Origin: Syntrophobacteraceae bacterium
GTDB lineage: Bacteria; Desulfobacterota; Syntrophobacteria; Syntrophobacterales; Syntrophobacteraceae
Reading direction: 5' to 3'
DNA length: 41,951 nt
Assembly: GCA_029974695.1 (NCBI GenBank)
Contig: JARKQW010000140.1
Span: forward strand, 1 to 41,951
A model generated the notes under the pieces. It was not told where the DNA came from, ran no database searches, and was given only the letters and a program-made list of their open reading frames with translations. Positions 1 through 25,331 of this stretch are shown here, piece by piece; position 1 is the first letter of the stretch; each line of letters begins with the position of its first letter. The translations under genes were made by a program, and so were the position numbers.

Positions 1-3000
1 TCGACGTCCTGAAAGAGCTTCATCTCATTTTCGAACTGAAAGTGGTGCCGGAGCCTGGCGTAAACAGCTTCCCGAAACGGCCCCCCTCTCGGATCGTCGT
101 AGATCCCCTCAGGATGGAGAAAGGCCGAAACCCCGCTCTTGGCCCCGATCATCCAGGCCTGGGGGAGGAAGCACTTGTAGAGGTTGGTCTGCACACCCTT
201 GAGGGACGGGTAGTTCTGAAGGCCGTTCAGAAAATTCTGGAGCCCCTCGGCTTCTTCGAATGCCTGCAAGTAATCGCTCCGCAGGTCATACCGGGCCAGG
301 GTCTCCTTGCGAAGGGCGGCGAGTTGCGGGGCCGTGAAGGACTTGAGCACAAAAAGGGGCTCCCTGTCGCCCATGACGCCCCCCTCGTTCCATTCCACCT
401 TGATCCACGGGGGGTTCCCCAGCACCAGGTCGAAGCCTCCGCGGTCGGCGAAGACCTCCGCGAATTCCAGTTCCCAGTGCAGGAAGCGGTACCGGGCCGA
501 CAGCTCGCAAACCACTTCGAGGCGCGGAATCTCCCGACAGAGCCTCTCCACGTCCACCATGCCGAATTTGTCGGGGGCGGGCATGGAGAGTTGTTTTGGC
601 CGGTTGTCCGGGAAAAGCCGGAGCTGCCCCTCGGGCGGGGTGGTCTCCAGGACGTTTCCCTCGAGGATGAGGGACAGGTCGAAGAAGTATTCCTCGCGGG
701 TGGGCAGAAGATCCGCCTTTTCCATGGGCCAGAACCACAGGGCGCACCAGTAGTCCATGACCAGCTTCAGTCGCCGATAGGCACTGGAGTTGCGGACGCC
801 CCTGGAATGGATCCTTTCCAAGAAGCGACGGTCCTTCTCGGACGTGGTGAGCGCCGGCCGGTTTGCCCCGCTCTTTGCCTCAGCCCCTTCCATGCCAAAG
901 ACCGACATGGAATCCGTGGTCTCGCGCCGGACGTCCCTCCGGTCCCGCGTGTGCCGGTCCCACAGGCGGTCGATTTCCCCGGAGAGCCTCTCCAGCCGGC
1001 TCACTTCCCGGTCGGTGAACGGCCTGGTGAAGTCCCTGCGCCACTGGTTGACGGCCCGGACGGCATCCCCCGCCATCTCCTTCACCACCCGGTCCGCGTA
1101 ATCGGCCATGCCCCGGTCCCCCACCAGGAAGTGGTATACGCTTTTCGGGGGTCGCTCCTCCCCGGGCATGATCCTCGTCGGAACTGCATCCAGCCAGACC
1201 TTGTCGGTTCTCTTGGCAGGTTTCAGAAGCTCCGACGCAAAGACCCGGCGCCTGGCCCCGATGAGGGAGTTCCCCGACACGAGCTGCATGCCGAACCAGG
1301 GGACATGGGCCCCCTCGTGGATGGTGTTGAGCCAGAGCGACACCTCGGCAAGTTCCACCGCCACGGGATTCAGGTCCACCCCGAAGACGTTGTTGTCCGC
1401 AAGGACCATCTTGACCTTCTGCTTTTCGACTCCGTAACGGTCGTGGGGAATAATCCGGCCCGTCTCCCTCTGTTTCCGCTGCAGATAGGCCTCGGCCAAC
1501 TGGTTCACGGCTTCGTTGAGGAACGCCGCGCTCCCCATGGCCGGCTCGCACACGGTAAGCTTCAGGATCTCGTCGGCCGTCCTGTCCTTGAGGAGTTCCT
1601 TCAGGGCGTACTTCACGAGGCAACGGGTCAGGACTTCAGGGGTGTAGTAGGAAGCCGACTTCTCCCGGTCCCGCCCCGCAAGGCGGTAGATGAACGTCCC
1701 CCTGGGGTACATCCTGAGGCTGCCGTCCTCGTTGTAAACCTTTTCTTGATCCGAGTACTTGGGGAGGTCCTCGGCTTTGACGAAGTAGGCCGTGTTCAGG
1801 GGATCGTGACTCTCCCCGGCCTTCTTCACCTCGTAGAGGTCCGTTTCAGCGAAGAAGCCCCGGTAGGAAAGGAGGGCTTCGTAAACGGCTCCGAGCTGGT
1901 TGATGCCGAGCTGTGCATAGGAGATCCGTCCCCGACGGTCCCTCCGGTTGCCGCCCCTGGAGAGGGACATGAGTTCGATGACCTTCTGGAGCACCTGGTT
2001 TCGGAATTTCACCTTCCTGAGGATGGGAGTGCGCGCCGGGTCGAAGAGGTGGGAGCGCAGGGGCGGGATGCGGAACGTGTGGTGCGCCGGGGCGGCGACC
2101 ATTCCGAGCTGTCTGCCCGGGCCATCCTTTTCCGGCGGGAAGCCTTCGTAGATCATCTTGAAGAGAAGCTCCAGAGATTCGTGGAGGAAGGTCCCGTTCC
2201 TCGACTCTTCCGTGGTGAGCTGCACCAGCTCCAGGTCCCGGAGGCTCTCCATGCTGTAGCCCAGCCGGTAGGGATCGGCCTTCATGGGGGCAAAGCCGAG
2301 CTCCGGGCGGGCTTCGATGTAAAAGAGAAAGAGCAGCCGGTACATGTAACGCAGACATTCCAGGGTGAGGTCCCCGGCAAGTTCCCGTTCGTAGACCTTT
2401 TCATGGAGCTTTTCCCGGAGGTACCGGACCGCTTCGTTCCCGATGAGCTCGATGGCTTCCCGGAGGGCGTACTTGAGGTCCTCGGAGACGGCGAATGCGT
2501 GCTTGTGGGAGTTTTCGTCCAGGGTGTCGAGCAGGGAGAGCCCTTCGGACGGGCACACGCTTTCCCGGTGGAGAAGGGCCGCCATGGCCTGAAAGGTGGT
2601 GGGTTCCTTTCGGTCGAAGATCTCCTTCAGGTCGAAGCGAAGGAGCCGCTTCTCGTTCCACTTGCTTCGGTCGAGGAGCAGGAGCTGCGCATCCGATGCC
2701 AGGATCACCCACCGGGGGGGCTCGGACAACCGGAAAACCCTCCGGGTGATAAGGTCCTCGAGGCTCATTTCGAGAATGCCGGGGTCCACCTCGACGCCCT
2801 CGGGATATTGGGCCGCCTGGAGCGGCACTTCCAGGGGGTCCTCGTCCTCGCCGGGCGTGGTCAGTGCATCGAGAACCCAGAGCTCGGGAGCGCCACCGGG
2901 ACGTTTCACTTCGCCCATGACCGGGATCCGTTTGCCGTCGTCCAGTTCCTTGAGGTCGAGGGAAAAGGGATAGCCCAGGACCTGGAGGAGGACCTGGAGG

Positions 3001-3242
3001 AATTCCCTCTGGACGGCGACCCGCTCGCCGGCCTTCCGCTCCCGGCCGACCCGGCTTCTCATGGCGAAGAAGTCCCGGGCGAGGGTTCTCAGCTCCCCGT
3101 ATGGGGGGCGGATGCCCTCCTCCTCGTCCCGGCGCTTCCATTCCTTGAAGACGTCCTTGAGGTCGTTTTCCAGGATGGCGCTGAGGTAGTGGTGGCTGTA
3201 GAACTCGTTTTCGTTGGTGATCCCCGTGAGATTCATCGCCAT
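1..3242 (-). CDS. Large gamma-class N6-adenine DNA methyltransferase (Eco57I/PglX/DrmMI-like); C-terminus cut by window edge
   Basis: Not in the supplied ORF track because it has no stop inside the window. Reverse complement from ATG 3242..3240 reads MAMNLTGITNENEFYSHHYLSAILENDLKDVFKEWKRRDEE. The same frame was hand-checked at 1679 (AGRDREKSASYYTPEVLTRC), 1559 (LTVCEPAMGSAAFLNEAVNQ, SAM motif I-like) and 407 (ARYRFLHWELEFAEVFADRGGFDLVLGNPPWIK, motif IV NPPW). All listed minus ORFs in 1..3267 lie in the other two frames. The start overlaps the helicase stop (TGATG). Confidence 0.85.
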   Translation of the reverse strand, partial: MAMNLTGITNENEFYSHHYLSAILENDLKDVFKEWKRRDEEEGIRPPYGELRTLARDFFAMRSRVGRERKAGERVAVQREFLQVLLQVLGYPFSLDLKELDDGKRIPVMGEVKRPGGAPELWVLDALTTPGEDEDPLEVPLQAAQYPEGVEVDPGILEMSLEDLITRRVFRLSEPPRWVILASDAQLLLLDRSKWNEKRLLRFDLKEIFDRKEPTTFQAMAALLHRESVCPSEGLSLLDTLDENSHKHAFAVSEDLKYALREAIELIGNEAVRYLREKLHEKVYERELAGDLTLECLRYMYRLLFLFYIEARPELGFAPMKADPYRLGYSMESLRDLELVQLTTEESRNGTFLHESLELLFKMIYEGFPPEKDGPGRQLGMVAAPAHHTFRIPPLRSHLFDPARTPILRKVKFRNQVLQKVIELMSLSRGGNRRDRRGRISYAQLGINQLGAVYEALLSYRGFFAETDLYEVKKAGESHDPLNTAYFVKAEDLPKYSDQEKVYNEDGSLRMYPRGTFIYRLAGRDREKSASYYTPEVLTRCLVKYALKELLKDRTADEILKLTVCEPAMGSAAFLNEAVNQLAEAYLQRKQRETGRIIPHDRYGVEKQKVKMVLADNNVFGVDLNPVAVELAEVSLWLNTIHEGAHVPWFGMQLVSGNSLIGARRRVFASELLKPAKRTDKVWLDAVPTRIMPGEERPPKSVYHFLVGDRGMADYADRVVKEMAGDAVRAVNQWRRDFTRPFTDREVSRLERLSGEIDRLWDRHTRDRRDVRRETTDSMSVFGMEGAEAKSGANRPALTTSEKDRRFLERIHSRGVRNSSAYRRLKLVMDYWCALWFWPMEKADLLPTREEYFFDLSLILEGNVLETTPPEGQLRLFPDNRPKQLSMPAPDKFGMVDVERLCREIPRLEVVCELSARYRFLHWELEFAEVFADRGGFDLVLGNPPWIKVEWNEGGVMGDREPLFVLKSFTAPQLAALRKETLARYDLRSDYLQAFEEAEGLQNFLNGLQNYPSLKGVQTNLYKCFLPQAWMIGAKSGVSAFLHPEGIYDDPRGGPFREAVYARLRHHFQFENEMKLFQDV

Positions 3243-6103
3243 CAGTCGGCCCCCTTGAGCACGGCAACCACCTGGATGTAGGGGTTGTCCTCGGTGGTCA
3301 TGGTTTCTTCGATCCAGTTGAAATACTCGTCGAAGATGCGGTCGATCTCCCTGCGTTCCTTCTCCTTCCTCCCCTGAACGAGTTTTTCCGGAAGCTGCAT
3401 GGACTCGAACCGCGCCTCCAAGTGAAGGAACTGCTTTTTCCTGAGCCTCTCCAGGGCATTGAGGTGCTCATTGAGCTTCTCGTTGATGCGGTCCTCAAAA
3501 TCCTTTCGTTCCCGACTCATCCACGCCCCGGCCCGGGCCACGGCTTCGGGAAGGAGCTTGAGGAGGGGCTCCAGGTCCATGTCGTTTCCGGTGTTGGGGA
3601 AGTTCCTGCTTGCCAGTCCGGTGCGATCGAGGAGGCTTTGAAAATCCTCGATCCCGTGGAAGTGACGGTTTCGAAACGAGACCCCGATCCATCGGTGTAT
3701 TAGGGGGTGGCTCCTGCGGTTGGGGATGAGGCCCGAGAGGATGAAGACGACTTCCCCGGGTTCTAGGGCACCCTGGAGGCCCAACACCGGGGCTTCATGC
3801 CGGCCGAAAGCGGCGACCACCTTGTCGTTCACCCATTCGAGGACCGGGTTCAGGGTCCAGAGGAAGTGGATGTTCGGCCAGGCGTTCTCGTCCTTGCGGC
3901 TCCGTTTGATTTCCCCCTGGATCGTCGCCGGGTCGGACGAAAGGGTGAAAACGCCGTCCTCGGGCCAGATCTCCCGGGGAAGAAACCGGAATCGCTGTTT
4001 CAGGTCTTCGGGAGGGGTGAGGTCAACGCGGCGCCGTTCAGGGAGGAATTCCACCTGGAGGGGCTGCGACTGCCTGAGGTGCCGGACGGCCGCCTCCAGG
4101 TAAGCAAAATCATCCCGAAAGAGTGTGGGCATGGAGCGGGTCACGGCCGGCGCATCGCTGCCGGTGGGCGGCTCCTCTTCTCCCATGAGCAGGGCCAGGG
4201 GGTCGAACGCCTTTGCCTGGAGGGAGGCTTCGAATTCCCCGGGGCTCTGGTTTTCTTCCATGGCGCGGGCGGTGATTTTTTCTTCCTCCTCGATGTCGTA
4301 GACGCCCATCAGAGCGCTGGGGTCCCCGATGTTTTTCACCGCCTGTTCGTCCTTTTGGATGAGGAGTTCGAGGATGCGGGTGTCCCCCCGGATTTTGGCA
4401 TTGTCACTATGGGTCACGAGATAGAGGATCTGCGGGGTGTGCTCCTGCCCGTAGCGGTCGATGCGGCCGTTGCGCTGTTGAAAGACCATGAGGGACCAGG
4501 GGATGTCGAAATGGATCATGCGATGGCAGAGGAAGTGGAGGTTGATGCCCTCCGAGGCCACGTCCGATGCGATGAGGAGCCGCACGGGTGCCTCTTCCTT
4601 GCCGAAATCCTCGACGATGCGCTGCTGTTCGATGTCCGAGAGGGTCCCGTAGAGCACCTCGACCTGATTTTCGTGCAGCCCGAGCTCTTGTTTCAGGTGC
4701 CTCTGGAGGAATCGCAGGGTCTCGATCCGTTCCGTGAAGATGACCAGTCGGTCCCGGGTGTCTTTGCCCGTCCATCCCAAACCATGCCGGGTGTCCCGGA
4801 GGAGTTCCACGAGCTTTCGGTATTTGCCGAAATGCTCCGGAGTGATCCTTTCGACTTCCCGGGCGAGGTCTTCCAGGGTCTGAACGTCCTCGTCCCAGGA
4901 GGCGTCTTCGGACTTCCTGAGGCGGTTCACCCGGTTTCGGATGGTTTCGAGGCATGCGGCGGGGCTTGAAAAGAGGGCCTTCTCGAGGGTGGTCTTGAAG
5001 AGTTCCCCGGCGGGCGCGGTCCGGTCGATGCGGGTGAACTTGAGATCCACGAAGGCGTCGAACGCCGCTTCTTCCCGGACGGACGCCCTGCAGGGCACCT
5101 GACGGATCTGTCTTTCCTTGAAGGCCTTTTCCACCTGGTTCTGGATGTCCTTTTTGAAGCGGCGGATGAAGAGGCCCTTGATGTCTTCCCGGGTGTAGTC
5201 GTCGGGGTTTGCGATGGCCGTGGGGTCGAGCATGTTCATGATGCTTGCGAAACTGCGGGCCTTTCCGTCGTGGGGAGTGGCGGAGAGCATGATGAGCGTG
5301 TCCGAGCGCTGGGCCAGGAGCCTGGCCAGCTTCGCCCGCAGGGATGAACCGCCGTCCCGTTCCGCGACATTGTGGGCCTCGTCGATGACGATGATGTCCC
5401 AGTAGGCGTTTTCGAGGTAGGTTCGGTATTCGGTGTCCTGTTTCAGGGTGTCGATGGAGATGATGGCCCTGTCGTAATAGTAGAAGGGGTTGTGGTTGGT
5501 GGGGATGCGGCTGCGGATCCGCTGGATCCCCACGGAGTCCAGCCGGGTGAGGGGGATGGTGAAGCGGCTCCACATCTCCTTCTGGAACTGAGTGAGCATG
5601 CTCTTCACCACAACCACCAGGATGCGTTTCCCTCGGCCCCTGCGGATGAGTTCACTCAGAAGGATCCCGGCTTCCAGGGTCTTTCCCAGCCCCACGGCAT
5701 CGGCGATGAGGATGCGCTGCCTCGGTTGCCTGAGGGCCTGGACGGCCGGGACCAGCTGGTAGGGGACGGGGTCCATGGCGGCCCGGTGGCCGATGTAGAG
5801 GTTCTCGTCCGTTGGAGGTGCCTGGCGAAGGAGGCTCTCCATGTAGAGGAGAGACGCCTGGTAGGAACTTGAGGAGTCCCGAACCAGATTCGTTTTCGCC
5901 GGGTCGAGAACTTCGATGGGTTTTGCCAGATCCTCGACCTCCGTGAGGTATACGGCCTCCTTGTCTCTCACCAGCTCCGATATGCCGACCACCGTGACGG
6001 CCTGCCCCCCGGTGGAAGTTCGATCGACCTTGCGCACCAGCCATTCCGCGTCGCGCACGAGCACCCTGGCTCCCGGCGCCGGGACATTGCCTTTGAGGTT
6101 CAT
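3242..6103 (-). CDS. SNF2/RapA-family helicase (DrmD-like)
   Basis: ORF 3242..6208. Motifs: ADAVGLGKT (Walker A), VIDEAHNV (DEAH), LMLSATPHDGK (motif III), LIASDVASEGINLH (motif V), QQRNGRIDRYGQ (motif VI), plus about 330 aa of C-terminal extension. Preferred start is ATG 6103 (MNLKGNVPAPG), preceded by GAAGGAAGCAAGG. The in-frame ATG at 6208 is possible but lies in low-GC, non-coding-looking sequence. Confidence 0.9.
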   Translation of the reverse strand: MNLKGNVPAPGARVLVRDAEWLVRKVDRTSTGGQAVTVVGISELVRDKEAVYLTEVEDLAKPIEVLDPAKTNLVRDSSSSYQASLLYMESLLRQAPPTDENLYIGHRAAMDPVPYQLVPAVQALRQPRQRILIADAVGLGKTLEAGILLSELIRRGRGKRILVVVVKSMLTQFQKEMWSRFTIPLTRLDSVGIQRIRSRIPTNHNPFYYYDRAIISIDTLKQDTEYRTYLENAYWDIIVIDEAHNVAERDGGSSLRAKLARLLAQRSDTLIMLSATPHDGKARSFASIMNMLDPTAIANPDDYTREDIKGLFIRRFKKDIQNQVEKAFKERQIRQVPCRASVREEAAFDAFVDLKFTRIDRTAPAGELFKTTLEKALFSSPAACLETIRNRVNRLRKSEDASWDEDVQTLEDLAREVERITPEHFGKYRKLVELLRDTRHGLGWTGKDTRDRLVIFTERIETLRFLQRHLKQELGLHENQVEVLYGTLSDIEQQRIVEDFGKEEAPVRLLIASDVASEGINLHFLCHRMIHFDIPWSLMVFQQRNGRIDRYGQEHTPQILYLVTHSDNAKIRGDTRILELLIQKDEQAVKNIGDPSALMGVYDIEEEEKITARAMEENQSPGEFEASLQAKAFDPLALLMGEEEPPTGSDAPAVTRSMPTLFRDDFAYLEAAVRHLRQSQPLQVEFLPERRRVDLTPPEDLKQRFRFLPREIWPEDGVFTLSSDPATIQGEIKRSRKDENAWPNIHFLWTLNPVLEWVNDKVVAAFGRHEAPVLGLQGALEPGEVVFILSGLIPNRRSHPLIHRWIGVSFRNRHFHGIEDFQSLLDRTGLASRNFPNTGNDMDLEPLLKLLPEAVARAGAWMSRERKDFEDRINEKLNEHLNALERLRKKQFLHLEARFESMQLPEKLVQGRKEKERREIDRIFDEYFNWIEETMTTEDNPYIQVVAVLKGAD

Positions 6104-6954
6104 CCTTGCTTCCTTCAGTTTTGCTGAATCCACGCAAAGAAAACCAATGCCAAACTCCGTTTGCCGCAAAACCCGTCTGGGTGCGGAAAAAGACCCGTCA
6201 TGGTTCATGGTTGCCGCGACATTGGGGCGTCAGGAATCCCAGTGCCCGCATGATTTCCAGGTAGCGGTATAGTGAAACAACTCCGCCATTCCAGCAAGAC
6301 CGAAAACATCCCGCCACGGTAGGATGGAGAGTCATGGGTGCTGATCGGGGTGTAGCGGCCCAAGAAAAGGTGGCCGTCCGCATGGAGAATGTACCGAAAG
6401 GGTATCATCGTTTCCATGATGTCGACTTCAACGGTTTCAACATCGACTAGGTCGCCGCGGGACCTGGTGGAATCTTTCGCATCGAAACCAAGAGCCACAG
6501 GGGAGGTATCGCTTCGAACGGTGACAATCTACTGCTGAACGGCAAGACTCCCGGACCCGGACGCCAACCCAGGATCGTGAACGATTCTTCCGGAAACAGA
6601 CATCCAAAGAATGGAGGGTCAAGCCTCCCTCTGCTTAGAGAATGCTTACGCGAGGATTCGTGAACCGGTGAATGCCATCACCATGTCCGGTATCGGCTAC
6701 CGGACTGGATTCCTCTGTCGGCAGCCCCATATGTCATCAAGCGGGAAGATGTGGAGCGGATTGCCCGCATTCTTTCTTGGTGAATTTCAAGGAATCGGCG
6801 CAAAGGAAGGCAGCCGTCGGGCCGACTTCTTGTCGTGGCATGGCATACTGCGTTCACCCTTCAATTGCCCACGGTTTCGTGGTATAGACCTAGGCACCTA
6901 CGGCAGCCGTTCATCCGATGTCGAGTTACACGATTCCGAGAGCATCGGGGCTTC

Positions 6955-16991: not shown

Positions 16992-18635
16992 ATGGAGACT
17001 GCTTTCCGGCAGGAGACTCCGGGCCTGGGCAAAGAAGCAAGGCGCGGTGGAGAGGGGACATTCGAGATGGAGATTCCTTCCTCGAAGGATGAGCGCAGCT
17101 CCAACCCTAGAAAGACCAGACCCGTCCTGGTCATGGGCGCAACGGGATACATCGGGGGCCGCCTGGTGCCGTTGCTTCTCGAGTTGGGATACACGGTGCG
17201 GGTGATGGGACGGTCTTTGCCCAAGCTGGAATCGCGGCCCTGGGCAACTCATCCGAGGCTCGAAGCGGTGCAGGGGGACGTGCTGGACATCCACTCCCTC
17301 AAGAAGGCGGTTCAAGGGTGTTGGGCGGCTTTTTACCTGGTCCACTCCATGAACACGTCCACCAGTGATTTCAGCTACTTGGACCGGGTTGCCGCCTGGA
17401 ACATGGTGGAAGCCTCGGGTAGTTCGACCCTCGAGCGCATCATTTACCTCGGGGGGTTGGGGGATGAGAGCGACCCGGCCCTGAGCAAGCACCTCCGTTC
17501 GCGCCTCGAAGTGGCCCGAATTCTGCGCTCCGGGTCCGTCCCGGTCACGACCCTGCGGGCCGCGATGATCCTGGGGTCCGGAAGCGCCTCCTTCGAGATC
17601 CTGCGGTACCTCGTCGACCGGCTCCCCATCATGCTCGCACCCCCCTGGGTGCACACGCCCGTCCAGCCCATCTGCATCCGAAACGTCCTCCATTACCTGG
17701 TGGGCTGCCTGGAACACGATGAAACCGTCGGGCAGGCCTTCGATATCGGAGGACCCGAGATCCTCACGTACGAACAACTGATCAAGATCTATGCCCAGGC
17801 AGCCGGGTTGCGGGAAAGGGTGGTGATTCCCGTTTCTTTCATATCCCCTCGGTGGAGCCCCCTTTGGATCTCCCTGGTGACCCCGGTACCCGCGCCCCTG
17901 GCACGAGCCCTGACCGAAGGGCTCCTGAACAAGGTGGTTTGCCGCGACGAACGCATACGCCGGATCATTCCCCAGGAGTTGATGACCTGCCGACAGGCCA
18001 TCGATCGCGCCATCGAAAAGATCGAGCGGCATCGGGTCGAGGCCTGCTGGACGGATGCGGGCCGACTCCTCCCTCCCGAATGGAGCTACTGCGGAGATGA
18101 GCCTTACGCGGGGGGAACGGTTTTGGCCTGTGCCTATCGGGTGCGGATCAAGGCATCCGCCGGGGAAATCTGGGAGCCCATCGTCCGGATCGGAGGCCAA
18201 ACGGGCTGGTACTACGGCGGGCCCCTGTGGCGAATCCGCGGGTGGTTGAACAAGCTCATCGGGGGGCCCAGCCTCATGCGGGGAAGGCGGGATCCCCGGA
18301 CGCTCTATGTGGGCGATGCCCTGGATTTCTGGCGGGTGCTCGAAGTCTCCGCCCCTTTCCGGCTTCTGCTCCTCTCGGAAATGAAGCTCCCGGGCGAGGC
18401 GATCCTCGAGTTCACCATCTCTCCCGGGGGACAGGGGGAATGCGAGCTCCGGCAGGTTGCGCGCTTTCTGCCCAGGGGCACCGTCGGGCTTCTCTACTGG
18501 TACAGCCTGTACGGCGCTCACCAGTTGCTCTTCAAGGGAATGCTTCGCACCATTGCCCGAGAGGTTGGAAAGCCAATCGTGAAAGGACCCGAGCGGTTCG
18601 AACCCCGGTTGGATCTGGTCTGTCGGATCGACTGA
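16992..18635 (+). CDS. NAD(P)-binding SDR/NmrA-like protein with C-terminal DUF2867-like domain
   Basis: Rossmann motif VLVMGATGYIGGRLV. The C-terminal WRVLEV...LLLLSEMKLPGEAILEF...LYWYSLYGAHQLLFKGML is typical of DUF2867. An alternative in-frame ATG at 17067 sits in a duplicated initiation region. Confidence 0.85.
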   Translation: METAFRQETPGLGKEARRGGEGTFEMEIPSSKDERSSNPRKTRPVLVMGATGYIGGRLVPLLLELGYTVRVMGRSLPKLESRPWATHPRLEAVQGDVLDIHSLKKAVQGCWAAFYLVHSMNTSTSDFSYLDRVAAWNMVEASGSSTLERIIYLGGLGDESDPALSKHLRSRLEVARILRSGSVPVTTLRAAMILGSGSASFEILRYLVDRLPIMLAPPWVHTPVQPICIRNVLHYLVGCLEHDETVGQAFDIGGPEILTYEQLIKIYAQAAGLRERVVIPVSFISPRWSPLWISLVTPVPAPLARALTEGLLNKVVCRDERIRRIIPQELMTCRQAIDRAIEKIERHRVEACWTDAGRLLPPEWSYCGDEPYAGGTVLACAYRVRIKASAGEIWEPIVRIGGQTGWYYGGPLWRIRGWLNKLIGGPSLMRGRRDPRTLYVGDALDFWRVLEVSAPFRLLLLSEMKLPGEAILEFTISPGGQGECELRQVARFLPRGTVGLLYWYSLYGAHQLLFKGMLRTIAREVGKPIVKGPERFEPRLDLVCRID

Positions 18636-19051
18636 TCCTCCGGGTGCCTCGATGCCGAAGGTCCCGAAGGGGCGGCAGCCAAGGCCGCGGACGCCGTCCC
18701 GAGATTCAGCGGGCGATAAGGATGTGCCGGCGGCAAGCGGGCGGGGCACCCCGGGAGGCGACATGGGTCGGCCTCAACGTCCCCGACACCTGCCGAAACT
18801 CCCTCTCCGGAAAACGCCCGGCACGATCGAGGATGTGCTTGACGGGAGCTTCGGCCCAAAGTATCAGAGTCAGTGCTTTCGTTCCGTACCACACAGACCC
18901 CCCGAGGGGGAGGGCGTTTCCGCATCCCCTCCCCCGCTTGTCTCCTAACAGCAACCGTACCGATCCGAAAAATTCTCCTTTTTTTCGAGTCGTCTCGGGA
19001 GCGTTGTCCCTTCTTACGGCCACACACTGCGAAGCAGCCAAAGGATGATCT

Positions 19052-22000
19052 ATGAGCCCCATGACGCTGGAACAGTTGAAAGGGAGAATGGCGGACAACC
19101 GCGAATTCCAGGACTATTTGAAGTGGCAGGAAAGCCGGTCGGGCCGGAAGATCCTGGACGACGTGGCCCTGCTGAGGGCCTACCAGGGGTACCTCCTCGA
19201 ACACTTGGGCGATGTCCGGGGCCAGCTCATGGACGAGTCCGACCTTCGCCTCTCCCTGGTGCTGGCCCTCCATTTCAACCCGCTGTTTCAGCAGGAATTC
19301 CGGGCCGGAAATCCCACCCTCGCCCAAAGGTACGACAAGGAAACGGCCGTTCAGAGCTCCGGACCGGTCAACGAGCTCATGGCCCAGGTTTTCAAGCAAT
19401 ATGCGGCCTGGCTGACCCGGGAACTGGACGACACCATGTTCCGGCTCGAGGAGGCCGGGACGGACGAAGTCCTCCAGTACGAGAAACGACGGGCGTTGGA
19501 GCTGCGGTTCGGAAAGCTCTTCGACCGGGAGCTTCGCCTGGCAAAGGAGGAAGGCTACACCCTCCAGCTGGCCGTCCAGGAGAAGGAACAGACCAAGAAG
19601 GAGGTCATGGAGTTCCTCTCCCAGGACGCTTCTTCGCGCGTCACTCGATTTAATTGGGCGATTTTCGGAAACAGCGACAAGACCTCGGCGGGAATCGACC
19701 TCCTCAATCGGGAGATCACACGGTGCAACAGGGTTTCCGGGATCATGCGCGCCATGCTGCCCCGTTACGCCGCTCACCCGAAAAGCCGGGAGATCCTCGA
19801 GACCCAGATCGCCCTGGCCGAATCCCGCCGGACCGAGGCCGAACACTACATCGCCCGGCTCAAGGAGTGCAAGAGGGTCAAGAAGCAGGCCCGGATCTCC
19901 TGGCAGGAGAAGACGGCGGAGTCCGAAGCCTTGCTGAAACAGACGGATGTGGAACTCCTCGGCGTGAGTGAGGACCTCCTGCGCGGGGTCCGGCAGGTGG
20001 TTCCGTCCCTGCGGGAACAAGAAGCGCAGATCGGGACTCGCCTCAAGGAACTGGAGAAGACCGTCCGGGAGATTCCCCGTCTCTATGAGGAGCAGGAAAA
20101 GCAGACGAACGAGCTCGTGCGAATCGAGTCCATCCTGGCAGGGGACCCTATCCGGTTGAAGTACCTTGGCAACCTGGGATTCAAGGCCGGCTCCCTCCCG
20201 GCCCTTCGCCGGTCCATCGCCGAGAGGGCCCGGCTCATCGAGGAGACCGAGCTGCGCCAACGGCACCTGAGCGAGGATCTCGCCTTTCTCAATGCCAAGT
20301 ACAACGCCATGTTCGATCGGACGGAAGCGGCCCTCAACGACCAGCAAGAGCTCAATCGGCTTCGGGCCAAGGCCCACGACGAGCTCCAGTGGCTCCAGAG
20401 CCTTCCCCGGATTCACAGGGCCCTCAATGTTTACTGTTCCACGGCCACCGTGACCTTCGAGCTTTTTCTGAGCATCGGCCAGATCGCTGCGGGCCGGGCC
20501 TGCGGTCCCGTCGGGGGGACGGCCGTCGCGGCCATGGGCATCGCCGGCATGCCCATCACCTATGGATTGAGCCTTCCTCTTTCGGGGGCGCTCCTCACCA
20601 ACATACAGCCCTACGACACGGGGCAGCTGGGCATTTCCCTCAAACTGGGCTTCTCCTGGGGTGCGGACTTCCAGCCGGCCACCAAGGACAGCCTGGAAGC
20701 GAGCGTGGGCATGGCCATTGTCTACGATGCGTCCCTCCAGGTGTCCGACACCCGCGGGTTCTCGACGGTGAGCACCATCACCCTGGCTACGACGGCGGAG
20801 GCCGCCATTCCCGGCGCCCTTCGGGCAGCCATCGAGATGGAGCTCATCAAAGAGAAACGGGTGATGACTTTCAAAGATGTCTATCACTGGGCGGCCTGGA
20901 TCGGCCAGAAGTGGGCCAACCTCCGCGCCTGGGCGGTGGCGGCCCGGCTTTACCGGGGAGGAGGGACCTCTCAACCGACGGCGGAGGACCTCAAGCGCCT
21001 TCGGGAAGTTGCCGACATCTCCCTCAAGAACGACAAGCCGACCCGGGACATGCTCGAGAAGGTCTTCAAGTACATGGGGGAACCCATTCTGCGGACGGAG
21101 TGCAAGGAGCTCTTTCCGCACATAGGAGCGGAAATCTCGGCGGCGGAATTCTTCAGTCTCAAAGGAGCCCGGGAGCGCAGGTCCGAGCCCAAGTTCATCC
21201 GGAGGAACAGCGACATCAAGACGGGGGAAGTATACGACGAAGAGAGAAAAGGGGATCAGTGGAGCCGATCTTTGACCGTGGGAGCGGGAATCCAGGTGCA
21301 GGCGGATTATTCCAATGTTGAAAAGGACCCCAATCCCGACAACGTAGGGGAGTCCCTGACCTTCACCATCTCCCTGCCCATATTCGATCAGAATGCCCAA
21401 TGGATCTCGACCCCGGCAATGGATCCCTCGAAGGGGGCCATCGGCACCTGGGTGCAGAGTCACCTGGCGCCTGCGGCCAACAAGATATCGAACTTCACGA
21501 ATCCGGGGGTGTTCAATCTCTTCAAGAGTTCCCTGGCCACGAATCCTTTCCTGAGTCTCAGCACCGGCCTGGCCCTGGGCACCGTCCAGGTAGCCCTCTT
21601 TCTTTCGACCCTCACCAAGCGTCCGGCCCCCGACGGCAAGACCGGCAAATGGGTCCTTTTTTACTGGCGCCCCGTTTTCAGCACGGCCACCGAAATCCAG
21701 AGGACCGTTCCCCTGGGCTACGGGTTCAACATGGTGCTGGGAGGAAGCGTGTCCTTGTCCCGCACCTACCGGGAACAACTGGGGGACAACACCATCGTGT
21801 ACCTCCAGATCGTGTACAACGGTCTCATGAATATCTCCCTGCCCGGCGACGACGGCAATCCCAGACCCCCCGAGGCCCGCGGTCCGGCGCTCTGGAAGGA
21901 ATACGTGGACACGCAAAAGAAGACCATTTGGAGGATGATGCACAACATCACCCTTCCCCATACCTGGATTGCCGCCGAGGTGAATGACCGGGAAGGAGGC

Positions 22001-23698
22001 GCGAAACTCATCGCCGACCTCAAGAGAATCATGCCCGCGCCCGCCCGCCGTTCCTCCAAGGGGCTGCCCTCCCAGCATAAAGCTCCCTACGTGGACGTGG
22101 ACGCCCCGGAGTCCTACCCCGACTTCAGCCAAACGTTGTTTGACAAGGCTTTTGACCCCTTTCAAAGGCACCTCGAAGATTTTCGCAAAAGCGATTACCT
22201 CACCCACAAGAACAAAGACTGGCATCGCATCCCCATCCAGGGAGGCACCTTCAATTGGTCCATGAATCCCATCGTCATTGCCGGGGAACTCTACCGAACC
22301 CACACGACCCAGTACAAGCTCGAGAAGGGCGTGGTGGACGCAAGAACCGCCCTGGGTCATCGAAAGGGGGCCTCCCAACAGGTCCTGGCGGACGTCAAGA
22401 TGGTGCCCGACGAGCAGGCCCCCAACTGCATGTTGTGCGGGGTCGCCTTCAGCTTCATTCGCCGTCGGCATCACTGTCGCGAATGCGGGAAGGTCTTTTG
22501 TGCCGATTGCTCGAGCCACAACATCGAGCTTCCCCACAGGAGCCAATTCAAACCCGTCCGGATCTGCAACACCTGCTATGCGCGGCTCACCGCGGCGCCC
22601 AAGCAGCCTGCCCAGGCCCCGAGCGGCCACAAAGACCCCGGCGCCGCCGACCATGGGGAACCTCTCCCGCAGGTTCGGAGCCCGGTGAGCCAACCCCACA
22701 GGGAAGGCCTCCCCGCAGCGACCCACAGCCCGGTGAGCTCTCCTCAGAAGACGGGGATGTTGACATCGGCCTACGTTTCCTCGCAGGTTCCCGGAAAGGA
22801 AAGCCTGCTCACGTCCTTCCGCCGAAGCCCGGAGGCTCCCAGAGGGGAAAGCCCGCTCTCATCGTCTGGTTCCAACCTGGGCGCCCTCGATCCAGACGGC
22901 GGCAGGGTGCAGGCCCCGGTGGTGCGGGGAGGGGAGGTCCGATCGGAGTGGGGAGAGGGGAAAGACGAAATCACCGTGCTGGACGAGATGGAGCACGAGC
23001 GGTGGTGGAGCACTCGGATCGCCAGGCCCGTTCCCAGCAGCGCGGACCGCCAGGCCTACATCGATTTCGCCGTTTCCGATGCGCAGGCAGCCCAGGCAAT
23101 GAGAGAGGAAAGCCCGGCAAGCCGGGAGGCTCAGAAAAGCAAGGGCAAAATCTCTCCTGGCGGCAGGTCCTCGAGACTGAAAGGAGTGACGGTTGCCGAA
23201 GAAGGAAGGAATCCCATTGTCGGCAAGGAGTTGACCAATTACTTCGACATTACGGATGTCTCGGCGGATGGGAATTGCCTGTTTCGATCCATGGCCGTCG
23301 CTCTGCAAAGGCCCGAGAATCAGCACAAGGCCTATCGGCGCCTGGCGGTGGAACATATCTTCCTGCACCCGGCGGATTTTGAGACCGTGTACCAGGGCAA
23401 CGTCCCGGCCTATCTTTACACCATGTCGGAGACGGCACGGCACCCCGAAGACAAGGCACGGTGGGGTGGTTCCCCGGAAATCCTCGCGCTAAGCCGGATT
23501 CTGAAGCGGGAAATCATCGTCTATGCCTGTACCTTCGATTCCCCCACCGCCTGGGAGCTGAACCGGACGGTCCTGTTCGTGCAACAGCACGCCATGGGTG
23601 ACGGTCCCTTCAAGCCACCCCGGGAGGCGGTCCCCATCTACATCGCAAACCAGGGGGGAAACCACTACGTCTGCCTGAAGCCCAAGGCCCGGCGGTAG
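19052..23698 (+). CDS. 1548-aa multidomain protein: coiled-coil N-terminus, bilobed hydrophobic segment, unknown beta-rich core, FYVE zinc finger, P/S-rich linker, C-terminal OTU cysteine protease
   Basis: ATG 19052 follows AAAGGA. The amino-acid composition is balanced and protein-like (K, N, Y, W, F, I), unlike the 1402-aa antisense ORF, which is G/R/P/L-rich. FYVE: MVPDEQAPNCMLCGVAFSFIRRRHHCRECGKVFCADCS...VRICNTCY. OTU: DVSADGNCLFRSMAVAL ... GGNHYVCL. Confidence 0.9.
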   Translation: MSPMTLEQLKGRMADNREFQDYLKWQESRSGRKILDDVALLRAYQGYLLEHLGDVRGQLMDESDLRLSLVLALHFNPLFQQEFRAGNPTLAQRYDKETAVQSSGPVNELMAQVFKQYAAWLTRELDDTMFRLEEAGTDEVLQYEKRRALELRFGKLFDRELRLAKEEGYTLQLAVQEKEQTKKEVMEFLSQDASSRVTRFNWAIFGNSDKTSAGIDLLNREITRCNRVSGIMRAMLPRYAAHPKSREILETQIALAESRRTEAEHYIARLKECKRVKKQARISWQEKTAESEALLKQTDVELLGVSEDLLRGVRQVVPSLREQEAQIGTRLKELEKTVREIPRLYEEQEKQTNELVRIESILAGDPIRLKYLGNLGFKAGSLPALRRSIAERARLIEETELRQRHLSEDLAFLNAKYNAMFDRTEAALNDQQELNRLRAKAHDELQWLQSLPRIHRALNVYCSTATVTFELFLSIGQIAAGRACGPVGGTAVAAMGIAGMPITYGLSLPLSGALLTNIQPYDTGQLGISLKLGFSWGADFQPATKDSLEASVGMAIVYDASLQVSDTRGFSTVSTITLATTAEAAIPGALRAAIEMELIKEKRVMTFKDVYHWAAWIGQKWANLRAWAVAARLYRGGGTSQPTAEDLKRLREVADISLKNDKPTRDMLEKVFKYMGEPILRTECKELFPHIGAEISAAEFFSLKGARERRSEPKFIRRNSDIKTGEVYDEERKGDQWSRSLTVGAGIQVQADYSNVEKDPNPDNVGESLTFTISLPIFDQNAQWISTPAMDPSKGAIGTWVQSHLAPAANKISNFTNPGVFNLFKSSLATNPFLSLSTGLALGTVQVALFLSTLTKRPAPDGKTGKWVLFYWRPVFSTATEIQRTVPLGYGFNMVLGGSVSLSRTYREQLGDNTIVYLQIVYNGLMNISLPGDDGNPRPPEARGPALWKEYVDTQKKTIWRMMHNITLPHTWIAAEVNDREGGAKLIADLKRIMPAPARRSSKGLPSQHKAPYVDVDAPESYPDFSQTLFDKAFDPFQRHLEDFRKSDYLTHKNKDWHRIPIQGGTFNWSMNPIVIAGELYRTHTTQYKLEKGVVDARTALGHRKGASQQVLADVKMVPDEQAPNCMLCGVAFSFIRRRHHCRECGKVFCADCSSHNIELPHRSQFKPVRICNTCYARLTAAPKQPAQAPSGHKDPGAADHGEPLPQVRSPVSQPHREGLPAATHSPVSSPQKTGMLTSAYVSSQVPGKESLLTSFRRSPEAPRGESPLSSSGSNLGALDPDGGRVQAPVVRGGEVRSEWGEGKDEITVLDEMEHERWWSTRIARPVPSSADRQAYIDFAVSDAQAAQAMREESPASREAQKSKGKISPGGRSSRLKGVTVAEEGRNPIVGKELTNYFDITDVSADGNCLFRSMAVALQRPENQHKAYRRLAVEHIFLHPADFETVYQGNVPAYLYTMSETARHPEDKARWGGSPEILALSRILKREIIVYACTFDSPTAWELNRTVLFVQQHAMGDGPFKPPREAVPIYIANQGGNHYVCLKPKARR

Positions 23699-23916
23699 AA
23701 TCGTTGCGCCCGCTACCAGAAACATCCCGGGTCGAGGGGGGTTGGGACTGGTCCACAAATTCAGGGCATGGTAGGGATCGGTCCTCCGGGAAACGGTTGA
23801 GAGCAAGGGCCCGAACCTAGGGCCGGCTCAACGGAAGAGGTGGAGAAAGGAACCGGCACGGGGTTGCCGCGGATGATTCCCTGGATTGAGCGATTTGGCC
23901 GGCACGCATCCCGTTT

Positions 23917-23945
23917 CGTCATTCCCGCGGACAAACGGGAATCCC
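23917..23945. repeat. REP-type hairpin (same family as 6955..7024)
   Basis: CGTC-ATTCCCG-CGGACAAA-CGGGAAT-CCC. It shares the CGTCATTCCCnCG...CGGGAAT core with the reverse complement of 7001..7024. Confidence 0.5.
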
Positions 23946-24065
23946 TGAAAGGCGTGCATACCCTCCGGGTGCTGGGTGCCGGCCTGCGTGGACCTGACGA
24001 GGGGATGGTCTCGGAATCGCTCAAATCAGGGATTCGCCATGCGTGCCGGATTTGGTCGTGAACCG

Positions 24066-25331
24066 ATGGCGAGAACCATGAAGAAAGAAAATACGGAACC
24101 CGCTTCCCCGGGGAACCTCCGGGAATCTCCCGGTCTGAAATGGATCGTCTTCTCCCTGGTTTGTGCGGCGTTTACCACCGTTTATATCACCCAGCCCGTA
24201 CTGCCCGTGATCCGGGCAGAATTTCACGTGAGTGAGACTCGGGCCTCCTGGACCATCGCCGCGGTCGTCCTGGGAATGGCCCTCTCCAACCTGCCTTTCG
24301 GGATGCTCTCCGACCGATATCCCCTGCGGCCGATCATTCTGACCGGCGGCGCAACGGTGGCCTCGGCCGGGTTCCTTTGCGCCGCGACTTCGAGCCTGGC
24401 GGTGCTCGTGGGCGCCCGATTTGTCCAGGGCCTTTTTCTTCCCTCACTCACCACCTGCCTGGCCGCGTACCTGGCCCGCAGTCTTCCGCCCGCATCCCTC
24501 AACGTGGTCATGGGTACCTACGTGTCGGCGACGGTGGCCGGAGGGTTGGGGGGCCGTCTTCTCGGCGGCTGGATTCATCCTCCCCTCCACTGGCGGTTCG
24601 CATTCGTGAGCGCCTCTCTCATGCTCCTGGGGGCGACCCTTGCGGCGGTGAAGCGACTGCCGGGCAACGGGCCCGTTCGTCCCGCGGATACCCCTGCCGC
24701 AGGGTTCCTTCGGTTGCTTTCCCGAAAAGAGTTTCTCCGGACCTACCTGGTGGCGTTTGGAGGGTTCTTTGCCTTCTCGTCCGTCTTCAATTATCTGCCC
24801 TTTTATCTTTCGGGGTCCCCTTTCGGGGCTTCCACCGAGCTCATTACGCTACTGTATCTTTCCTACACTGTGGGGATGGTGGTCGGTCCCCTGGCAGGTA
24901 AGGTCAGCAACTCCATCGGCAACGGCAACACCATGATCCTGGGTGCCGGCATCTTGGGCCTTTCCATCGTCGCGACCCTCATTCCGTCCCTGCTGCTCAT
25001 CATCGTGAGCCTTGTGGGAATCTGCATCGGGTTTTTCGCCGTCCATGCCTCGGCTGCCGGCTCTCTGAACCGCAAGTTGACCGGAAACCAGGGCAGAGCC
25101 AATTCCCTCTACGTCCTGTTTTATTACCTGGGGGGAGCGGTAGGAATCTACCTGAGCGGTCACGCATACGCGTTGTGGGGATGGGCCGGTGTGGTCGGGG
25201 TGACCGTGTCGATGCTCGTGATTCCTCTGGCAACGGGGGCTGCGGAAAGGAGAGAGGTAGGGAGAGCCCTGAGAAAGGCGGGTCCGTTGTGGATGCGTTC
25301 GGTCCAGGGGAGCGGGCTTCGGAAGCGGTAG
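24066..25331 (+). CDS. MFS transporter
   Basis: About 12 predicted TM segments. The loop motif GMLSDRYPLRPI is typical of MFS. The start is uncertain: ATG 24066 (MARTMKKEN), 24039 or 23976. Confidence 0.85.
   Translation: MARTMKKENTEPASPGNLRESPGLKWIVFSLVCAAFTTVYITQPVLPVIRAEFHVSETRASWTIAAVVLGMALSNLPFGMLSDRYPLRPIILTGGATVASAGFLCAATSSLAVLVGARFVQGLFLPSLTTCLAAYLARSLPPASLNVVMGTYVSATVAGGLGGRLLGGWIHPPLHWRFAFVSASLMLLGATLAAVKRLPGNGPVRPADTPAAGFLRLLSRKEFLRTYLVAFGGFFAFSSVFNYLPFYLSGSPFGASTELITLLYLSYTVGMVVGPLAGKVSNSIGNGNTMILGAGILGLSIVATLIPSLLLIIVSLVGICIGFFAVHASAAGSLNRKLTGNQGRANSLYVLFYYLGGAVGIYLSGHAYALWGWAGVVGVTVSMLVIPLATGAAERREVGRALRKAGPLWMRSVQGSGLRKR

Follow-up and report, generated by a model that had tools for sequence, protein, structure and literature searches.

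Introduction

The characterised bacterial deubiquitinases of the OTU and CE-clan folds come from pathogens or obligate intracellular bacteria, which deliver them through secretion systems of type III or of type IV (T3SS or T4SS), and among those of the OTU fold are the secreted effectors ChlaOTU and the Lot proteins of Legionella, including LotA (Lem21) (PMC7396840). Here we describe a protein of 1548 residues that carries both a FYVE zinc finger and a C-terminal OTU cysteine protease and is encoded on a 41,951-nucleotide stretch of DNA from a Syntrophobacteraceae bacterium (assembly GCA_029974695.1, contig JARKQW010000140.1; hereafter the window), which is one whole NCBI contig and is bacterial throughout. 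LotA has been reported to reach the pathogen vacuole, which is positive for phosphatidylinositol 3-phosphate (PI3P), via a lipid-binding region, and the Francisella effector OpiA acts on phagosomal PI3P.

An earlier note on this DNA, made from the sequence alone, had taken the product for a fusion of a membrane-insertion-like core with FYVE and OTU domains, and had proposed it as a candidate effector aimed at eukaryotes or at a ubiquitin-like system. The FYVE–OTU protein is confirmed as real, because the profiles and motifs of both domains are significant, the composition of the gene is native, and intact copies occur independently. The gene and its parts are laid out as follows.

19041..19045, forward strand: Shine–Dalgarno-like AAGGA, 6 nt 5' of the ATG, by direct reading of the sequence
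19052..23698, forward strand: open reading frame with stop codon, 1548 aa without interruption, comprising the N-terminal module, core, FYVE finger, linker, and OTU domain
19052..20404, forward strand: N-terminal helical module (aa 1–451), rich in L/E/R/A/Q, by composition
20405..22387, forward strand: conserved core domain (aa 452–1112, ~660 aa), by profile search and AlphaFold2
20417..20611, forward strand: helical hairpin with which the core begins, rich in G/A and of moderate hydrophobicity (aa 456–520), by hydropathy and AlphaFold2
22400..22591, forward strand: FYVE zinc finger (aa 1117–1180), Pfam PF01363, with RRHHCR at 22463–22480
22592..23233, forward strand: S/P/A/G-rich linker, presumably disordered (aa 1181–1394), by composition
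23234..23686, forward strand: OTU cysteine-protease domain (aa ~1395–1545), with the Cys1409 codon at 23276–23278 and the His1538 codon at 23663–23665

The FYVE Finger and the OTU Protease

The FYVE finger matches PF01363 with a score of 77.2 bits against a curated cut-off of 27.8 (E=1e-21), and a search of PDB sequences returns the FYVE domains of EEA1, ZFYVE16, Vps27, and Hrs at E=1e-16 to 1e-11, that of EEA1 being the most similar (E=1.3e-16). All eight zinc-ligand cysteines are present as four CxxC pairs (C1126/1129, C1142/1145, C1150/1153, and C1172/1175) and are invariant across an eight-member alignment, while the RRHHCR motif is intact, with RIC in place of RVC, and is fully conserved across the FYVE-bearing family. 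The finger is complete, as the earlier note had described it, with a deviation at the WxxD position, and it is a candidate PI3P binder.

The C-terminal domain matches PF02338 from residue 1405 onward at E=2.3e-12, its score of 48 bits well exceeding the curated threshold of 23.3. As a single query against PDB sequences it finds OTUD1 at E=1.4e-4, and a profile of seven OTU domains of the family aligns over positions 3–142 of 144 with nairovirus vOTU, OTUD5, OTUD3, and OTUD1 at E=5e-10 to 5e-9. The cysteine of the DGNC loop (C1409) and the histidine of the NHY motif (H1538) lie in register with the catalytic residues of OTUD5 and vOTU, and both are invariant in all seven family OTUs. With the near-full profile alignment and the two residues in register, the assignment of a C-terminal OTU protease stands, and the domain would be expected to act as a deubiquitinase (DUB) on ubiquitin or a ubiquitin-like protein (Ubl).

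The reading frame is single and uninterrupted, as had been stated, and intact copies of 1548 residues are found in three independent assemblies, on contigs of 41,951, 76,214, and 16,058 bp; a bacterial contig of 716 kb carries an orthologue of 61% identity, a contig of 2.9 Mb carries a further one, and a partial copy carries the database name 'FYVE zinc finger domain-containing protein [Syntrophobacteraceae bacterium]'. The start at 19052 is supported by the AAGGA sequence 6 nt upstream and by the N-terminus MSPMTLEQLK, which is kept among aligned homologues as the pattern MSPMTL.QLK. This N-terminus, MSPMTLEQLKGRMADNREFQ, holds no signal-like segment, and no signal peptide is found. No sigma-70 consensus promoter is found across 18500–24100, and the number of terminator-like sites around the gene lies within chance expectation. 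The GC content at third codon positions (GC3) is 0.795, compared with 0.71–0.80 in the neighbouring genes, the codon-usage cosine is 0.975, and the FYVE and OTU segments match the remainder of the gene in both respects, which bears out the earlier impression of native composition and argues against a recent eukaryotic contaminant. The earlier note would have given the protein up for insignificant FYVE or OTU profiles, a chimeric or eukaryotic contig, or a frame broken in independent assemblies; both profiles are significant, the contig is bacterial, and the independent copies are intact. In one metagenome-assembled genome (MAG), an orthologue (P0264/P0265, in the cluster of P0004) is broken up on an NCBI contig of 146 kb, one piece measuring 713 aa and the other 403 aa, and may be a frameshifted or decaying copy.

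The Core Domain, the N-Terminal Module, and the Linker

The core between the N-terminal module and the FYVE finger had been described as a β-rich region of no recognised family, and so it has proved: no Pfam or NCBIfam model matches it, NCBIfam holds no family for any part of the protein, and a core profile searched against PDB sequences finds nothing significant, its lone match (E=0.048) being a designed binder. AlphaFold models of the core built from 7 sequences reach a pLDDT of 61.8 and a pTM of 0.64, and AlphaFold2 models from 17 diverse sequences reach 71.6 and 0.72, with agreement among the five models and a pLDDT of ~90 in the strands. The predicted core consists of approximately 14–16 amphipathic antiparallel β-strands of 17–25 residues each, arranged in three blocks with helical inserts and a helical tail.

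The models also correct two details of the earlier segmentation of the protein, which is otherwise broadly right. The segment FLSLSTGLALGTVQVALFLSTL (aa 832–853), previously taken for a hydrophobic helix, is modelled instead as a long β-strand with a pLDDT of ~90. The supposed bilobed hydrophobic segment at residues 456–520 is indeed moderately hydrophobic, but its Kyte–Doolittle maximum is 1.4, and it is modelled with low confidence, as short helices with a pLDDT of 35–82. This hairpin is missing from many distant core homologues, whose matches begin at profile positions ~45–100.

When both core models were compared with PDB and BFVD by Foldseek, the top match was FadL (E=5e-8; TM-scores 0.17/0.24), and the remaining matches were all outer-membrane (OM) β-barrels, namely TodX, OprD/Occ porins, BamA, autotransporter translocators, and CdiB. 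As OM barrels alone are returned, and with poor TM-scores, the core fold has no solved homologue; matches of such low TM-score are unusable as evidence of homology, and membership of the OM-barrel family is rejected because the protein has no signal peptide, the domain is internal, sequence similarity is lacking, and the TM-scores are low. The predicted fold can nevertheless be read as a membrane-barrel-like β-meander, and on the models the core may insert into membranes.

The N-terminal module gives only weak, coiled-coil-type matches in Pfam. A hidden Markov model (HMM) of the module, searched locally, matches 20 proteins, all of which bear FYVE fingers, and among them covers the homologue P0020 of Methylomagnum ishizawai over its full length (E=2e-36); judged by these matches, the ~440-aa module is specific to the FYVE-bearing subfamily.

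The linker between the FYVE finger and the protease contains a short motif, [QK]xSL[LM], which occurs 21 times in the family linkers against 2.7 occurrences expected from shuffles, with one to four copies per linker in the Desulfobacterota members; the linkers that show it are those of P0002–P0008, P0019, P0022, and P0026, besides that of the window protein. In the window it is represented by ESLLTS at 22802–22816 and a degenerate GMLTS at 22757–22768. These repeats may serve as a docking motif for host proteins; they fit neither the dileucine nor the clathrin-box consensus.

The Family and Its Interchangeable C-Terminal Domains

A first homologue search recovered eight prokaryotic relatives of 24–99% identity, from metagenomes or from Syntrophobacteraceae and Syntrophobacter MAGs; identities within the family alignment are 24–63%. 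The block that is conserved runs from residue 1 to approximately residue 1180 and comprises the helical N-terminal region, the core, and the FYVE finger; it is followed by a variable linker and a C-terminus that is swapped between members. Among 1.84 billion representatives, the core profile (aa 452–1112) matches 116 clusters, counted at 50% identity, at E<=1e-3, and 36 at E<=1e-30. A FYVE motif follows the core in about 20 of the 116, and the N-terminal module is detectable in exactly that subset; many other core members have neither protease nor FYVE finger. The hosts of the FYVE subfamily are Syntrophobacteraceae, Smithellaceae, Desulfobacteraceae, Myxococcales, and a cultured methanotroph, and the core-family members that can be placed belong to Methylomagnum ishizawai (the cultured methanotroph, with a complete genome), Myxococcales, Desulfobacteraceae, Smithellaceae, Smithella, Syntrophobacteraceae, and Aquimarina litoralis.

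The C-terminus is an OTU domain in the window protein and in P0002–4, and a CE-clan Ulp-like domain in P0005, P0008, P0022, and P0026; the domain of P0005 matches Orientia OtDUB at E=5e-8, and also ChlaDUB2, and the Peptidase_C48 and RickCE matches of P0005 and P0008 are weak. P0118 ends in a USP/UCH domain (UCH E=1.9e-14), and P0058 is laid out as eCIS_core, UCH, and core. The Methylomagnum protein P0020 has an OTU-like 'NGDCLF' cysteine loop, P0007 ends in an unrecognised Cys-containing domain, and P0006 has nothing in this position; searched against PDB sequences, the C-terminal parts of P0007, P0020, and P0021 match nothing significantly, so that they are called protease-like from their Cys/His motifs alone. 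In P0079, P0086, and P0130 (L020:10001-14917), OTU-like Cys/His segments (GDGHC...GHYW), recognised by motif only, lie between the β-blocks of the core, and several FYVE-less members show UBA-like stretches after the core, by eye only. That one scaffold should bear several deubiquitinase folds is difficult to account for unless the substrates are of the ubiquitin type.

This FYVE–DUB family is undescribed until now, as databases give its members automatic names only, and the literature searched contains no account of a bacterial effector with a FYVE finger.

Several loci of the family show further features. At L020, the core-family gene directly follows the gene of a small PG_binding_1 protein. 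A metagenomic island (L003:4328-13627) carries tandem paralogues, a 1682-aa FYVE+OTU protein and a 1208-aa FYVE-only protein, in the company of PhdYeFM, PemK, and ParE toxin–antitoxin genes; Fic, part of an integrase, and a Y1 transposase are also encoded there. The Desulfobacteraceae MAG Bpl_3 (JAAELK01) has at least three core-family paralogues on separate contigs (L006, L007, and L008), often beside further large open reading frames of 600–1000 aa. A patatin-like phospholipase is seen once as a neighbour across loci L005–L014, and directly upstream of P0008 in Syntrophobacter sp. (L002:5993-9529) is encoded an S/T/G-rich secreted protein of 1132–1178 aa with a signal peptide and no Pfam match.

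Links to Injection Machines

A genomic link between the family and a secretion machine comes from Methylomagnum ishizawai. P0020 has the whole N-terminal module, the core, and the FYVE finger as in the window protein, and its gene lies inside a type VI secretion system (T6SS) operon (L015:1-20837, FXAM01000001.1), co-directional with its neighbours and separated from them by gaps of 63 and 37 nt. NCBIfam identifies in this operon a short VgrG, TssF/IglH, DotU, TssG, an IglI-family protein (E=1e-98), an IglG PAAR-like protein, ClpB/ClpV, TssM, and IglE, and by this gene content it is a T6SS of the type encoded by the Francisella pathogenicity island (FPI).

A syntenic cluster is present in a Methylobacter MAG (L022:1-20945, JAUXVR010000034.1), where the order is VipA, VipB, TssK, TssE, VgrG through IglI and IglG, an AMP-binding gene, a variable slot, ClpV, and TssM. 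The slot (L022:13082-14599) encodes a 505-aa DUF6765+FYVE protein that has only the finger in common with the window protein, and this combination is, by its domain content, a second and unrelated bacterial FYVE architecture. As a FYVE protein fills the slot in both methanotroph clusters, the finger appears to be a recurrent feature of the cargo slot in this T6SS type; in both clusters the slot is preceded by the gene of the conserved AMP-binding enzyme.

The FPI-type system, T6SS(ii), has been described as unique to Francisella in a 2026 paper (PMC12955703), which makes it notable that environmental data contain at least 213 clusters of IglI-family proteins and that T6SS loci of this family are common in environmental bacteria. 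One of these clusters is from a 'Deltaproteobacteria' MAG, which lends the presence of such a system in the window organism plausibility at the level of the lineage only. Homology to the Francisella protein PdpC was considered and rejected, PdpC being α-helical, MCF-like, and unrelated to the FYVE–DUB family (PMC12955703).

Distant core members point to other machines as well. At least five begin with an eCIS_core/DUF4157 domain (E=5e-9 to 1e-25), which has been described as specific to extracellular contractile injection systems (eCIS) and N-terminal in the toxins that they inject (Geller et al.; PMC8213781), and in Aquimarina three eCIS_core genes stand in a row, the core member coming last; the window protein itself has no eCIS_core (PF13699) match in the Pfam search. 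P0044, a FYVE-less core member of 1324 aa with a near-identical copy on a 2.86-Mb contig, has genes for CopN/HrpJ, for a CesT chaperone, and for a GH77 enzyme in its vicinity (L018:87-1510, L018:5853-9827), a locus that looks, from its gene content, like a chlamydia-like T3SS neighbourhood and suggests by analogy that the core module also serves T3SS effectors.

The exchange of DUB and ULP classes, the homologue in a T6SS operon, and the eCIS marker in distant core members together support the earlier proposal of a eukaryote-targeting effector and strengthen it considerably. A possible likeness to self-translocating toxins had also been remarked upon; no similarity to clostridial or MARTX-type translocation regions is found, the core has the look of a β-barrel-type meander, and the observations speak for a contractile injection system as the means of delivery.

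Genomic Surroundings

The gene lies directly downstream of one for an NmrA/DUF2867 protein and directly upstream of one for a major facilitator superfamily (MFS) transporter. Elsewhere, the window has genes for a DrmD-like SNF2 helicase, for a TonB-dependent receptor along with a FecCD/ABC/periplasmic-binding-protein importer, for an [FeFe]-hydrogenase along with radical-SAM and HydF maturases, and for a PAS histidine kinase; no Rfam RNA families are found in it. Flanking genes differ at every Desulfobacterota and Myxococcota locus of the family and no secretion family recurs there, so that a conserved gene neighbourhood was rejected.

The alternative role in a bacterial ubiquitin-like system, which the earlier note had left open, is not borne out: no E1, E2, or Ubl genes are present in the window, and PADLOC finds no defence-system match for the gene. 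At the start of the contig, the SNF2 helicase (3242–6208, reverse strand) is a strong match to DISARM DrmD (PADLOC E=1.5e-106), and beside it lies a 1079-aa open reading frame (42–3281, forward strand) with no Pfam or PADLOC match; the two may belong to a defence system that is cut short where the contig stops.

Proposed Mechanism and Rival Explanations

Taken together, these observations suggest a deubiquitinase that is directed against eukaryotic grazers, delivered by injection, targeted to PI3P, and anchored to a membrane, a composite reading that we regard as somewhat probable. The protein would be an orphan cargo effector, exported by a contractile injection system, most likely an FPI-type (IglI) T6SS encoded elsewhere in the genome, and delivered into a eukaryotic cell, for example a phagocytic protist that had engulfed or contacted the bacterium. 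The N-terminal module would be a candidate region for loading or recognition; the amphipathic hairpin and the β-barrel-like core would associate with or insert into a host endomembrane, and the FYVE finger would confer specificity for PI3P-rich early phagosomes or endosomes. The flexible linker of ~210 aa would then allow the OTU domain to strip ubiquitin or Ubl from proteins at that membrane, which would blunt ubiquitin-dependent phagosome maturation, sorting by the ESCRT machinery, or xenophagy. Both the secretion of the window protein and its eukaryotic target are thus proposed by comparison with its relatives.

Several observations weigh against this reading. The 42-kb window has no secretion or injection genes, as the earlier note had already remarked along with the missing Sec signal, and no secretion gene lies within 10 kb at 14 other Desulfobacterota and Myxococcota loci of the family, where the neighbours are housekeeping genes (alaS, recA, nadA, and similar); the gene is an orphan in these lineages. 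The DNA of the source organism examined is the window alone, and we infer that the delivery system lies elsewhere in its genome, the T6SS link for the full architecture coming from one genome and a slot analogy in a second. No interaction of Syntrophobacteraceae with eukaryotes is known. Within the protein, the hydropathy of the hairpin stays below the usual transmembrane threshold (19-residue Kyte–Doolittle maximum 1.4 against 1.6), the likeness of the core to OM barrels is local only (TM 0.1–0.3, rmsd >19 Å), and the WxxD position of the finger reads MVPD, as it does in P0005, while most relatives have WVPD. The acidic (or Asn) third residue of the OTU triad, which as an acidic residue is typically found at His+2 (PMC7396840), is missing there, the position being Val in the window protein and Ser, Gly, or Thr in its relatives; some OTUs provide this residue from another position, and the window protein may do likewise, so that the Val would be no bar to activity.

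It is rather unlikely, though it is the strongest of the alternatives, that the core itself is the warhead, that is, a pore-forming or membrane-disrupting barrel-type toxin acting on grazers or competitors, which the FYVE finger merely steers to a membrane and the DUB, as an accessory, protects from ubiquitination and degradation by the host without any part in reprogramming host trafficking. The core holds the C-terminal toxin position in the eCIS_core fusions, many of its members lack both protease and FYVE finger, and its long amphipathic strands, as modelled, resemble those of membrane barrels; on the other hand, that similarity is local, no immunity-like small gene adjoins the FYVE–OTU gene, and the recurrent association with DUBs of several folds suggests that the protease is central in the FYVE subfamily. 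A core warhead would share the delivery route and the eukaryotic target of the injected deubiquitinase, and differs from it mainly in emphasis.

A cell-autonomous role appears improbable. The protein would in that case reside in the envelope or cytoplasm of its own producer, the OTU domain would process a bacterial Ubl conjugate or another peptide bond, for example in stress or antiphage responses, and the FYVE finger would be a generic zinc finger or bind a bacterial anionic lipid. Bacteria do have defence systems that conjugate Ubls and include dedicated proteases for their removal, and a chromosomal gene with native codon usage and housekeeping neighbours in a free-living host clade would suit such a role. 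Neither E1/E2/Ubl nor CBASS- or Bil-type genes lie nearby, however, PADLOC gives no match, and a signal peptide for envelope targeting is lacking; moreover, the PI3P-specific RRHHCR motif is fully conserved family-wide, and relatives have the CE-clan and USP folds typical of effector DUBs or stand in T6SS and eCIS contexts.

We consider it very improbable that the target is an archaeal partner, such as an Asgard archaeon or another archaeon with a ubiquitin-like modifier and ESCRT, that lives syntrophically with Syntrophobacteraceae or Smithella and would be manipulated by the effector. Such a target would suit host clades that are classical syntrophs, and an interplay of ubiquitin and ESCRT in Asgard archaea is reported in a preprint (bioRxiv 10.1101/2023.07.25.550441). 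Against such a target, members of the family are also found in aerobic methanotrophs, in Myxococcales, in Aquimarina, and in a chlamydia-like context, which do not share partners of this kind, and Francisella-type T6SS and eCIS have known eukaryotic targets. In addition, PI3P is not known to occur in archaeal membranes.

Since most FYVE and OTU modules by far are those of eukaryotes or viruses, and since one MAG has a relative in pieces of 713 and 403 aa, one could think of a chimeric assembly, of contamination by a eukaryote, or of a non-functional gene acquired very recently. An origin of this sort is effectively refuted by the three copies of the same length, the orthologues on 716-kb and 2.9-Mb contigs, the uniform GC3 and codon usage, and the depth of a family whose members share 24–63% identity.

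Wider Significance

The deubiquitinase effector proposed here may also belong to a wider pattern, which we put forward tentatively and with less confidence than the composite reading itself. Syntrophic Desulfobacterota, Myxococcota, and methanotrophs that are neither pathogens nor symbionts would widely deploy Francisella-type T6SS or eCIS whose payloads belong to an unrecognised effector superfamily, with a barrel-like core that enters eukaryotic endomembranes from the cytosolic or luminal side, readers of PI3P (FYVE) or ubiquitin (UBA-like), and interchangeable DUBs; this general 'phagosome sabotage' against grazing by protists would be older than the comparable strategies of Legionella, Francisella, and Chlamydia and would run parallel to them.

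If the composite reading is right, anaerobic syntrophs and methanotrophs are armed with dedicated anti-eukaryote weapons in which a genuine FYVE finger recognises the phosphoinositides of the host, and a new and widespread module of ~600 aa, with a predicted membrane-barrel-like fold, scaffolds at least three deubiquitinase folds. The Francisella-type T6SS would have an environmental reservoir with FYVE-tagged cargo, predator–prey interactions in methane-cycling sediments would be open to experiment, Methylomagnum ishizawai being cultured, and the family would be a source of new PI3P-targeted DUB tools.

Comparison with Known Systems

Among the OTU effectors, LotA would follow the same logic of a PI3P address combined with an OTU protease as is proposed here. 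The Lot proteins and ChlaOTU are, however, T4SS or T3SS substrates of intracellular pathogens, and where PI3P binding has been reported it does not involve a FYVE finger; they have neither the N-terminal module nor the β-rich core, and no sequence relation to the window protein is detectable outside the OTU fold. By profile, the OTU domain described here is closest to OTUD5, OTUD3, OTUD1, and the nairovirus vOTUs rather than to the Lot proteins. The CE-clan deubiquitinases OtDUB, ChlaDUB1, ChlaDUB2, and RickCE have the fold found in P0005, P0008, P0022, and P0026, whereas the window protein has an OTU domain in its place. The ChlaDUBs are also membrane-anchored, but the anchoring module of the present family is different and new.

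With regard to delivery, the large Francisella effectors PdpC, PdpD, and OpiA are encoded in or with a T6SS of the IglI/IglG/IglE type, which operates from inside the phagosome, and P0020 occupies a comparable position inside its cluster. Unlike the FPI cargo, the window gene is an orphan, and NCBIfam finds no FPI family in its product; as a further difference, the methanotroph clusters also encode VipA, VipB, TssK, TssE, and a ClpV-like ATPase. The eCIS toxins with DUF4157 share their layout with distant core members, which likewise occur in tandem eCIS_core arrays, in contrast to the window protein, whose N-terminus is a 440-aa helical module rather than eCIS_core and near which no eCIS structural genes are seen.

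Individual parts of the protein resemble other systems. EEA1 also combines a long helical region with a FYVE finger, but shows no homology outside the finger and has neither the β-rich core nor a protease. Chlamydial Inc effectors have a bilobed hydrophobic domain of 40–60 aa that forms two transmembrane helices; residues 456–520 of the window protein, which are G/A-rich, with a hydropathy maximum of 1.4 and a low-confidence model, are a tentative candidate for such a domain. The OM barrels (FadL/TodX, OprD/Occ, and autotransporter translocators) resemble the predicted core in their long antiparallel amphipathic strands; in contrast to them, the window protein has no Sec signal peptide or C-terminal β-signal, and its core is internal and broken by helical inserts.

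By analogy, the functionally closest systems would be the PI3P-addressed DUB effectors exemplified by LotA and the membrane-anchored ChlaDUBs, with a delivery context that resembles the cargo of the FPI T6SS and the eCIS toxins. The new elements are the genuine FYVE finger, the N-terminal module and β-rich core, the free-living syntroph and methanotroph hosts, and an exchange of DUB folds that is reminiscent of polymorphic toxins. The protein would thus belong to a known kind, the secreted and membrane-targeted DUB effector, built on a new scaffold.

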